Source of the DNA: Escherichia coli
Lineage (GTDB): Bacteria > Pseudomonadota > Gammaproteobacteria > Enterobacterales > Enterobacteriaceae
Reading direction: 5' to 3' (one strand)
Assembly: GCF_044647545.1 (NCBI RefSeq)
Contig: NZ_CP172818.1
DNA length: 64,000 bases
The translations under genes were made by a program, and so were the position numbers. How positions within the stretch are numbered: the stretch's first letter is position 1; the number at the start of each line of letters is the position of its first letter. The notes below the pieces were generated by a model. That model was given only the letters and a program-made list of their open reading frames with translations, did no database searches and was not told where the DNA came from. Of the stretch, positions 56,931 to 58,134 are shown in pieces.

Positions 56931-57563
56931 CTATTTCAGCAGTTCCGGCCATAAACGCAAAGTCGTTCGGGCAATCTGCATCAGTTTTTCCTGCGATGCA
57001 CCTTCGCGTGCGCTGATCGACATCCCCTGAATAATACAATTAAGGAATTCTGCCAGATGCGTCACGTCACAGTGGGTCGGGATTTCCCCGCGCGCTTGTC
57101 GTTGACATAAAAACTGCTGCAAAGTGCGCTCTTGCATCGCATGGCGTGATTTCAGCGTATTGGCGATATCTCCTGAATCCGGGGAGAGGGTGGTGCAGTT
57201 GTTGATCATGAAGCAGCCAGCCGGAGTGTCTTTGCTGGTAAAGCAGTTGGCGATGGCAGCAAAATAGTCAGCCAGCGCAGACTCCACGCTTTTCTCTTCA
57301 CAAAACAGCTGTGCTTCATGCTTAGCGGCAAAACGATCGATATAGCGGTCGAGTACGGCGCGGAATAACCCCTCTTTGTTGGTAAATTCCGCGTATAGCG
57401 TGGGCGCTTTAGCTCCGGTCGCTTCAACGAGGTCCGCAAGAGAAGTCGCTTCATAACCGTGCTGCCAGAACAATTTCATGGCCTTATCAAGCGCGGCATC
57501 CCTGTCGAACACTTTTGGGCGGCCACGGCTTTTTTTTATACATTGTGTTGAGTCAGTTGCCAT
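56931..57563 (-). CDS. comR: TetR-family repressor ComR (YcfQ)
   Basis: 210 aa; N-terminal HTH. Confidence 0.94.
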   Translation of the reverse strand: MATDSTQCIKKSRGRPKVFDRDAALDKAMKLFWQHGYEATSLADLVEATGAKAPTLYAEFTNKEGLFRAVLDRYIDRFAAKHEAQLFCEEKSVESALADYFAAIANCFTSKDTPAGCFMINNCTTLSPDSGDIANTLKSRHAMQERTLQQFLCQRQARGEIPTHCDVTHLAEFLNCIIQGMSISAREGASQEKLMQIARTTLRLWPELLK

Positions 57564-57803
57564 GATGCCGTTGTACCTGGTGACTGTGAATTAAAGGTTA
57601 TTATAAAAATAATCACCTCCGTTCACCAGTCCAGAAACCATAAAAATAATCGCTTTCTATTTAACTGAAATTTAAAGATTTTTAAATTAATTAATGATTG
57701 TTATAAAAAATATCTTGTATGTGATCCAGATCACATCTATCATTTAGTTATCGATCGTTAAGTAATTGCTTGCGACGTCATTCATCTGCATAAGGCCACT
57801 ATT

Positions 57804-58061
57804 ATGAAAAACGTAAAAACCCTCATCGCTGCGGCGATTTTAAGCTCAATGTCATTTGCCAGCTTTGCGGCTGTCGAAGTTCAGTCAACGCCAGAAGGCC
57901 AACAAAAAGTCGGTACTATCAGTGCTAATGCGGGGACAAATCTGGGATCGCTGGAAGAGCAGCTGGCGCAAAAAGCGGATGAGATGGGCGCAAAATCTTT
58001 CCGTATTACTTCTGTAACCGGTCCGAATACCCTCCATGGAACAGCAGTAATTTATAAATAA
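57804..58061 (+). CDS. bhsA: Multiple stress resistance outer-membrane protein BhsA (YcfR/ComC)
   Basis: 85 aa with signal peptide; divergent from comR. Confidence 0.94.
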   Translation: MKNVKTLIAAAILSSMSFASFAAVEVQSTPEGQQKVGTISANAGTNLGSLEEQLAQKADEMGAKSFRITSVTGPNTLHGTAVIYK

Positions 58062-58100
58062 GCATTAACCCTCATTAATGCCTGCTACTGCTGATTTTTT

Positions 58101-58134
58101 CCCCGCGACATGCCGTGTCGCGGGGATTTTTTTT
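58101..58134 (+). terminator. Rho-independent terminator after bhsA
   Basis: Hairpin ccccgcgaca-tgccg-tgtcgcgggg followed by T8. Confidence 0.85.

Follow-up and report, generated by a model that had tools for sequence, protein, structure and literature searches.

A comparative element map of the AT-rich divergent control region between comR and bhsA of Escherichia coli, with a candidate ComR operator at the predicted bhsA start

The closest described system is the copper module of E. coli itself, in which comC (bhsA/ycfR) is under repression by ComR (YcfQ) until copper releases the repressor, as summarised in the relevant passage of a review citing Mermod 2012 (PMC10141476); the pairing of ComR with comC is repeated in a passage of a second publication (PMC4280137). 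The same review passage, again citing Mermod 2012, puts the site of ComR at '60 bp upstream' of comC and reports ComR to be without autoregulation (PMC10141476). Induction of the target gene has been described, with bhsA going up 11-14-fold in copper RNA-seq (2026 preprint) and ycfR of Salmonella being induced more than 200-fold by tetracyclines. Genomic SELEX lists both RpoD and RpoS holoenzyme peaks for the comR-bhsA spacer (RpoD: Shimada 2014), and the RpoD table flags this spacer as containing an H-NS binding site (Shimada 2014). Together with the CRP data discussed below, the occupancy by CRP in vivo and the binding of holoenzyme and H-NS to the spacer are thus shown in the cited data. 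ChIP-exo with myc-tagged YcfQ gave three weak sites only, assigned to cspA, metR and uxuA, and none in the comR-bhsA spacer (PMC8464067 supplement). [quoted passage not shown] The regulatory logic of comR-bhsA is published already, and what is new in this work is only a refined comparative map of its elements.

The window analysed here is a stretch of 64,000 nucleotides of E. coli DNA, in which an earlier note, made from the letters alone, had described 57564-57803 as an AT-rich spacer of 240 bp between comR and bhsA; ORF calling places these bounds exactly at the two ATGs. The gene identities and the divergent layout given in that note were upheld by the ORFs, by Pfam domains and by RefSeq annotation. 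The gene comR (ycfQ; MG1655 b1111; 56931-57563, minus strand) encodes a TetR-family repressor of 210 aa with the domains PF00440 TetR_N (1e-15, residues 25-70) and PF16925 TetR_C_13 and with many TetR-family relatives among PDB structures, while bhsA (ycfR/comC; MG1655 b1112; 57804-58061, plus strand) encodes a DUF1471 outer-membrane stress protein of 85 aa with a YdgH_BhsA-like domain (2.6e-20). Both names are those of the RefSeq annotation in MG1655 and in E. coli genomes with 100% identity over this region. The two AT-rich runs quoted earlier are likewise present, TAAAAATAATCACC at 57604-17 and AAATTTAAAG...ATAAAAAA at 57668-710. The GC content of the spacer is 30.8% as compared to 51.4% for the window, and equally AT-rich 240-bp windows make up 0.8% of all those in the 64 kb. 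The lowest-GC stretch of this size, at 29383-29622 (20% GC), lies directly downstream of flgL; the flgL-rne interval of strain FDAARGOS_497 holds a GNAT acetyltransferase/DUF1778 pair, and the window is not collinear with this strain there.

Conversion to MG1655 coordinates (window position = NC_000913.3 position - 1,111,269) showed a spacer of likewise 240 bp, which differs from that of the window at 4 of 240 positions, all of them outside the strongly conserved boxes described below. Of 5426 complete E. coli genomes, 5424 carry the 1.2 kb around the spacer, many of them with 100% identity, and the spacer itself was found in 5423, nearly always at an identity of at least 95%, and is missing from three. 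Five matches to the region are on plasmid-typed records, and a few E. coli genomes carry two copies. Downstream of the spacer, the 3' UTR of bhsA with its terminator (stem 58100-58126 followed by a T run) at 58034-58133 on the plus strand corresponds to the annotated sRNA BhsB (MG1655 1169303-1169402); no Rfam family was found for this segment, where only unrelated sub-threshold matches appeared. We are confident that 57564-57803 is the known shared divergent control region of the two genes, with ComR, CRP and H-NS as its inputs, and the proposal in the earlier note that ComR represses bhsA from within this spacer agrees with the published model as given in the passages cited above (PMC10141476, PMC4280137).

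Conservation was addressed by a scan in which each species was represented by one genome and which yielded 80 loci with ComR relatives of 68-96% identity. In 73 of the 80 loci bhsA is located divergently upstream of comR, with a spacer of 238-250 bp, and the alignment of these 73 Enterobacteriaceae spacers is the source of all conservation values given here in bits. Discrete conserved blocks of 1.7-2.0 bits stand beside poorly conserved stretches such as 57615-57641, with 0.54 bits. Read from the comR side, the blocks are GCCGTTGTACCT by the comR start, ATTATAAAAATAATC at 57600-14, CCAG at 57626-29 and AAAAATAA at 57642-49; then, in the middle part, 57691-57710, GTGA at 57721-24 and GATCACA at 57729-35 with a free centre between them, and TATCAT at 57738-43; and finally, towards bhsA, TATCGATCGTTAAGT at 57749-63, T..CGAC at 57770-76 and TTCATCTGC at 57781-89. 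Klebsiella loci, which were fetched separately, show the same layout of blocks and likewise have the two genes in divergent orientation. A bhsA locus without comR was sought as a control in K. pneumoniae, K. aerogenes and K. oxytoca, and none was found among them, comR being located beside bhsA in all three species. In one K. pneumoniae record (CP184409.1; locus L085, 1117-1668) the comR homologue is called with 183 aa as opposed to 211 aa and with a gap of 332 bp to bhsA, which could be due to a variant start codon or to a frameshift.

The converse situation, comR without bhsA, was found in four loci, those of Enterobacter sp. ENT03, Enterobacter sp. Bisph1, Pseudescherichia vulneris and Escherichia sp. 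ESNIH1, where bhsA is deleted up to ldtC so that comR now abuts ldtC. In these four loci the CRP site, the proximal bhsA promoter and the candidate operator O1 (all described below) have gone together with bhsA, and the TATAAT box of comR is kept. The left third of the spacer therefore goes with comR, and the right third with bhsA, a division that fits the reported lack of ComR autoregulation. The survival of ComR beyond its sole known target hints either at other targets or at a decaying gene. Duplication was also observed, as Kosakonia sacchari and K. arachidis each carry two comR-bhsA pairs per genome; their ComR copies share 68-76% identity with that of E. coli, and the O1 core and the CRP site are the same in both pairs.

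The predicted proximal promoter of bhsA, on the plus strand, is composed of a -35 hexamer TTGTAT at 57715-20, a 17-bp spacer and a -10 hexamer TATCAT at 57738-43, with a predicted start at about 57750. In a weighted scan this position was the top plus-strand sigma-70-like match in 69 of the 73 spacers, and the -10 hexamer has a mean of 1.67 bits. Most other genera carry TTGACG, 17 or 18 bp, and then TATCAT or TATGAT, the -35 having drifted to TTGTAT in Escherichia. The location of the proximal UP subsite is established promoter knowledge, and an A6 tract at 57705-57710, at -45 to -40 of the predicted start on the plus strand, may by its position be an UP-like element of this promoter; the block 57703-57709 over the tract has a mean of 1.74 bits. 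The proximal sigma-70 promoter, with its UP-like A6 tract, would thus drive bhsA from a start near 57750. The leader that follows on the plus strand comprises TTCATCTGC at 57781-89 (block 57782-57789, mean 1.64 bits) and a Shine-Dalgarno sequence AAGG at 57792-95. A structured RNA was considered as an explanation of the conserved leader and was rejected, as all three approaches were negative: a search of the spacer against Rfam gave no match even at E<=1, RNAalifold detected no conserved structure in the leader (-0.76 kcal/mol, zero compensatory pairs), and the leader fold was no better than that of shuffled sequences (MFE z-score +0.83). Inspection by eye of the distal region and the leader for marbox, IHF and sRNA-seed matches gave nothing convincing.

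The earlier note had also claimed palindromic candidate operators in the spacer, and an inverted-repeat search did find palindromes. A perfect inverted repeat of 8+8, the best in the spacer, is matched by 5% of dinucleotide shuffles and the best gapless 14+14 palindrome (11 matches) by 3%; the palindromes alone are marginally above chance for such an AT-rich composition, and it is conservation which bears the argument. The exception among them is TGTGA-N6-TCACA, with a single occurrence in the 64 kb where 0.06 would be expected. This perfect CRP consensus, TGTGATCCAGATCACA at 57720-57735, is located within the spacer of the bhsA promoter with its centre at 57727.5, about -22.5 relative to the predicted start, and its half-sites reach 1.97 and 1.94 bits as compared to 0.65 bits in the centre. 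CRP ChIP-seq in ETEC H10407 reported a high-confidence ycfQ/bhsA peak with TGTGATCTGGATCACA, which is the reverse complement of the site in the window, and CRP binding upstream of ycfR by EMSA has been reported in a second-hand statement. Because of the consensus match, the fixed half-sites with a free centre and the ChIP-seq peak, the most eye-catching palindrome of the spacer, ATGTGATCCAGATCACAT at 57719-57736, is a CRP site and not a TetR-type operator.

Activation by CRP is exerted from positions near -41.5 or -61.5, or farther upstream in helical phase. The site at about -22.5 is off these class I/II activating positions relative to the predicted start, and CRP bound to TGTGATCCAGATCACA would fill the spacer between the -35 and -10 hexamers and compete with RNA polymerase, leading to repression. 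In a network study built from EcoCyc/RegulonDB, bhsA belongs to an incoherent type-2 CRP feed-forward loop, the class in which CRP is the repressor. We regard it as probable, with a good deal of room for doubt, that CRP represses bhsA by occupying the promoter spacer.

The operator to which the earlier note could not commit itself was sought by comparison of the 73 spacers, and the candidate picked in this way, here named O1, is an imperfect palindrome of 28 bp at 57741-57768 with the halves CATTTAGTTATCGA and TCGTTAAGTAATTG (inverted repeat I1, 14 of 17 matches); its assignment to ComR stays an inference. The O1 core, TATCGATCGTTAAGT at 57749-63, has a mean of 1.88 bits; almost all of the 73 spacers share it unchanged, as do the paralogous loci of Kosakonia and those of Klebsiella, and it is kept even where the Kosakonia ComR is only 68% identical. 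O1 spans -9 to +19 of the predicted bhsA start and, counted back from the ATG, the positions 63 to 36 bp upstream. This location fits the '60 bp upstream' of the review passage (PMC10141476), a figure available second-hand. ComR bound to this palindrome, centred at 57754/55 on the core, would block open-complex formation or promoter escape. On the balance of this sequence evidence, we somewhat favour O1 being the ComR operator, from which the repressor would block initiation at the start near 57750. O1 is invariant and therefore co-variation cannot tie it to ComR. A search of the window for further O1-like sites returned six with two mismatches against 1.9 expected, which is not clearly above chance.

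Two other readings of the CRP palindrome have to be weighed against this arrangement. The perfect 18-bp palindrome ATGTGATCCAGATCACAT could itself be the ComR operator, in which case O1 would serve another factor or reflect another constraint; it is the best palindrome of the spacer (I11, 8+8 perfect), a position within the core promoter is a good one for a repressor, and at 68-85 bp upstream of the bhsA ATG it also loosely fits the second-hand '60 bp upstream' of the review passage (PMC10141476). We consider this improbable, as ATGTGATCCAGATCACAT is an exact CRP consensus, is occupied by CRP in vivo and shows conservation of the CRP type, with fixed half-sites around a 4-bp centre left free at 0.65 bits, whereas the flanks ATG..CAT that extend it to an 18-mer are a feature of E. 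coli which is not conserved in other genera. The site could on the other hand be that of a class II activator, since 57727.5 + 41.5 gives 57769 and a promoter starting near this position would have its -10 at TTAAGT (57758-63), inside O1; TTAAGT is almost fully conserved and most strong CRP sites activate. Yet TTAAGT agrees with TATAAT at only three of six positions, the promoter which encloses the CRP site (TTGACG-17/18-TATCAT) tops the scan in 69 of 73 species, and the database-derived feed-forward class has CRP repressing bhsA, so that activation from this site appears unlikely, if a little less so than ComR binding to it. We retain O1 as the candidate ComR operator and TGTGATCCAGATCACA as a site of probable repression by CRP.

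Two further elements resemble parts of O1. The sequence TTAATGATTGTTAT at 57691-57704, named O2, is a degenerate copy of the TTAACGATCGTTAT of some other genera and a candidate auxiliary ComR box; its block has a mean of 1.5 bits, ten loci carry there a perfect 12-mer palindrome, TAACGATCGTTA, from which the E. coli O2 differs by two mismatches, and CGATCGTTA is common to O2 and O1. A third element resembling a half-site, TTGCGAC at 57770-57776 (TAACGAC or TTACGAC in other genera), is inverted with respect to the TCGTTA of O1 and follows O1 by 9 bp, with T..CGAC being conserved. There are also three GATC (Dam) sites within 34 bp, at 57723 and 57729 in the CRP site and at 57753 at the dyad of O1, and it is on account of this placement that an interplay with Dam methylation is conceivable, in that occupancy by ComR and CRP could interact with methylation. 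A composite ComR operator made up of O1, the third half-site at 57770-76 and O2, with an interplay of ComR and CRP with Dam and a general thiol-reactive sensing by ComR, is a speculative and on the whole doubtful extension; under it, O2, which is a perfect TAACGATCGTTA palindrome in some other Enterobacteriaceae, would have decayed in Escherichia.

On the opposite side of the spacer, the predicted promoter of comR on the minus strand has its -10 TATAAT at 57605-57600 and its -35 TGGTGA at 57628-57623, separated by 17 bp, with a predicted start at about 57593. The ATTATAAAAATAATC block (57600-14), which reads TATAAT on the minus strand, has a mean of 1.69 bits, and this TATAAT is the top minus-strand sigma-70-like match in 55 of the 73 spacers. 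A start of comR near 57593 is the reading we lean towards from these matches. In the comR leader, on the minus strand beside the start codon, the conserved box GCCGTTGTACCT (57567-57578; 60-99% conserved per column across the 73 spacers) probably contains the ribosome-binding region of comR. Upstream of the -35, ATAAAAATAATC at 57640-57651 is an exact direct repeat of 57603-57614 (repeat D3), and its AAAAATAA core is conserved across the spacers; read on the minus strand it may be a T-rich UP-like tract of the comR promoter. The same ATAAAAATAATC holds the AATAAT that has been proposed from SELEX as the -10 of a distal bhsA promoter, TTCACC-17-AATAAT (Shimada 2014). Being 140 bp away, the promoter of comR would lie out of range of O1, in keeping with the reported absence of ComR autoregulation.

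The distal proposal raises the question of where bhsA transcription mainly starts. If it were to start from a distal promoter, either TTCACC-17-AATAAT (57622-57650) or TTAACT-16-TAAATT (57661-57688), O1 would act as a roadblock some 60-100 nt into a long leader. The former promoter was found by our scan as well as by Shimada 2014, and the latter, with its -10 ending at 57688, scores in E. coli the same as the proximal promoter, whose -35 TTGTAT is weak. Distal matches are the top plus-strand match in only 3 of the 73 species, however, and the hexamers of Shimada 2014 are best-match guesses inside a SELEX peak and not mapped starts, so that we judge a mainly distal origin of the transcript to be quite unlikely and keep to the proximal promoter with its start near 57750. 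The central AT-rich segment at 57652-57690 is moderately conserved (TATGAAA..TAA; mean 1.05 bits) and lies in the H-NS-flagged spacer. It might even be held that the AT-richness of the spacer is nothing but generic intergenic or H-NS-silenced composition without specific operator content, as the spacer is flagged for H-NS and its palindromes barely exceed the shuffle expectation. This is contradicted by the sharp blocks of 1.7-2.0 bits beside stretches of 0.5 bits across 73 species, by the conserved spacer length of 238-250 bp and by the documented CRP occupancy, and we give it hardly any credence. The AT-rich runs quoted in the earlier note are real as sequence but fall mostly on elements other than an operator, namely the -10 of comR, the UP-like tracts and the H-NS-flagged spacer at large.

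With regard to the repressor itself, the closest solved relative of ComR is CifR of Pseudomonas aeruginosa (PDB 6nsn; E 8e-33, residues 12-206). ComR has eight cysteines, of which Cys117 (PAGC) aligns with a cysteine of CifR (PRGC) in the ligand-domain motif P-x-G-C. This alignment, together with the biology of CifR, is the basis of a lead towards cysteine sensing by ComR; the two differ in organism and in target genes. Because of the CifR-aligned cysteine, the copper induction of bhsA and the tetracycline induction of Salmonella ycfR, ComR may respond to thiol-reactive or general envelope/translation stress and not to copper alone. If true, thiol sensing by ComR would account for the many stress responses of bhsA.

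With the map presented here the CRP site and the probable ComR operator can be distinguished from one another, and the AT-rich runs are attributed to the promoter of comR and to UP-like tracts. The map offers precise bases for mutation and is otherwise of little import, as publications and databases already document the locus, the repressor and the CRP site. Should the ideas of a composite operator or of thiol sensing hold, they would help to account for the place of bhsA among the enterobacterial genes with the strongest stress induction, which would still be an incremental advance.

In comparison to known systems, the nearest is the ComR/ComC copper module of E. coli (Mermod et al. 2012, Biometals 25:33), which is the same locus, so that the TetR-type repressor and its divergent DUF1471 target are shared as well; there is no difference in kind, and only the comparative element map is added here. 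The bhsA promoter resembles those promoters that are repressed by CRP within the core promoter, in that a consensus site overlaps the spacer between -35 and -10; the difference is that repression of bhsA rests on a predicted start and on a database network class. The likeness to the type I TetR pairs (TetR-tetA, AcrR-acrAB and QacR-qacA) lies in a divergent repressor gene and a palindromic operator in the target promoter, the operator of comR-bhsA being a candidate. The 28-bp IR1 of QacR, with its CGATCG-type centre, overlaps the qacA start site, as O1 does at the predicted start of bhsA. Also in common with this type, ComR has a TetR HTH and a C-terminal ligand domain, and comR and bhsA diverge from a short shared spacer. 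The comR-bhsA pair differs from the type I pairs in that its target is not an efflux pump but a small DUF1471 protein of the outer membrane, in that ComR is, according to the review passage, not autoregulated (PMC10141476), its promoter lying 140 bp from O1, and in that a CRP site is embedded in the promoter of the target gene.
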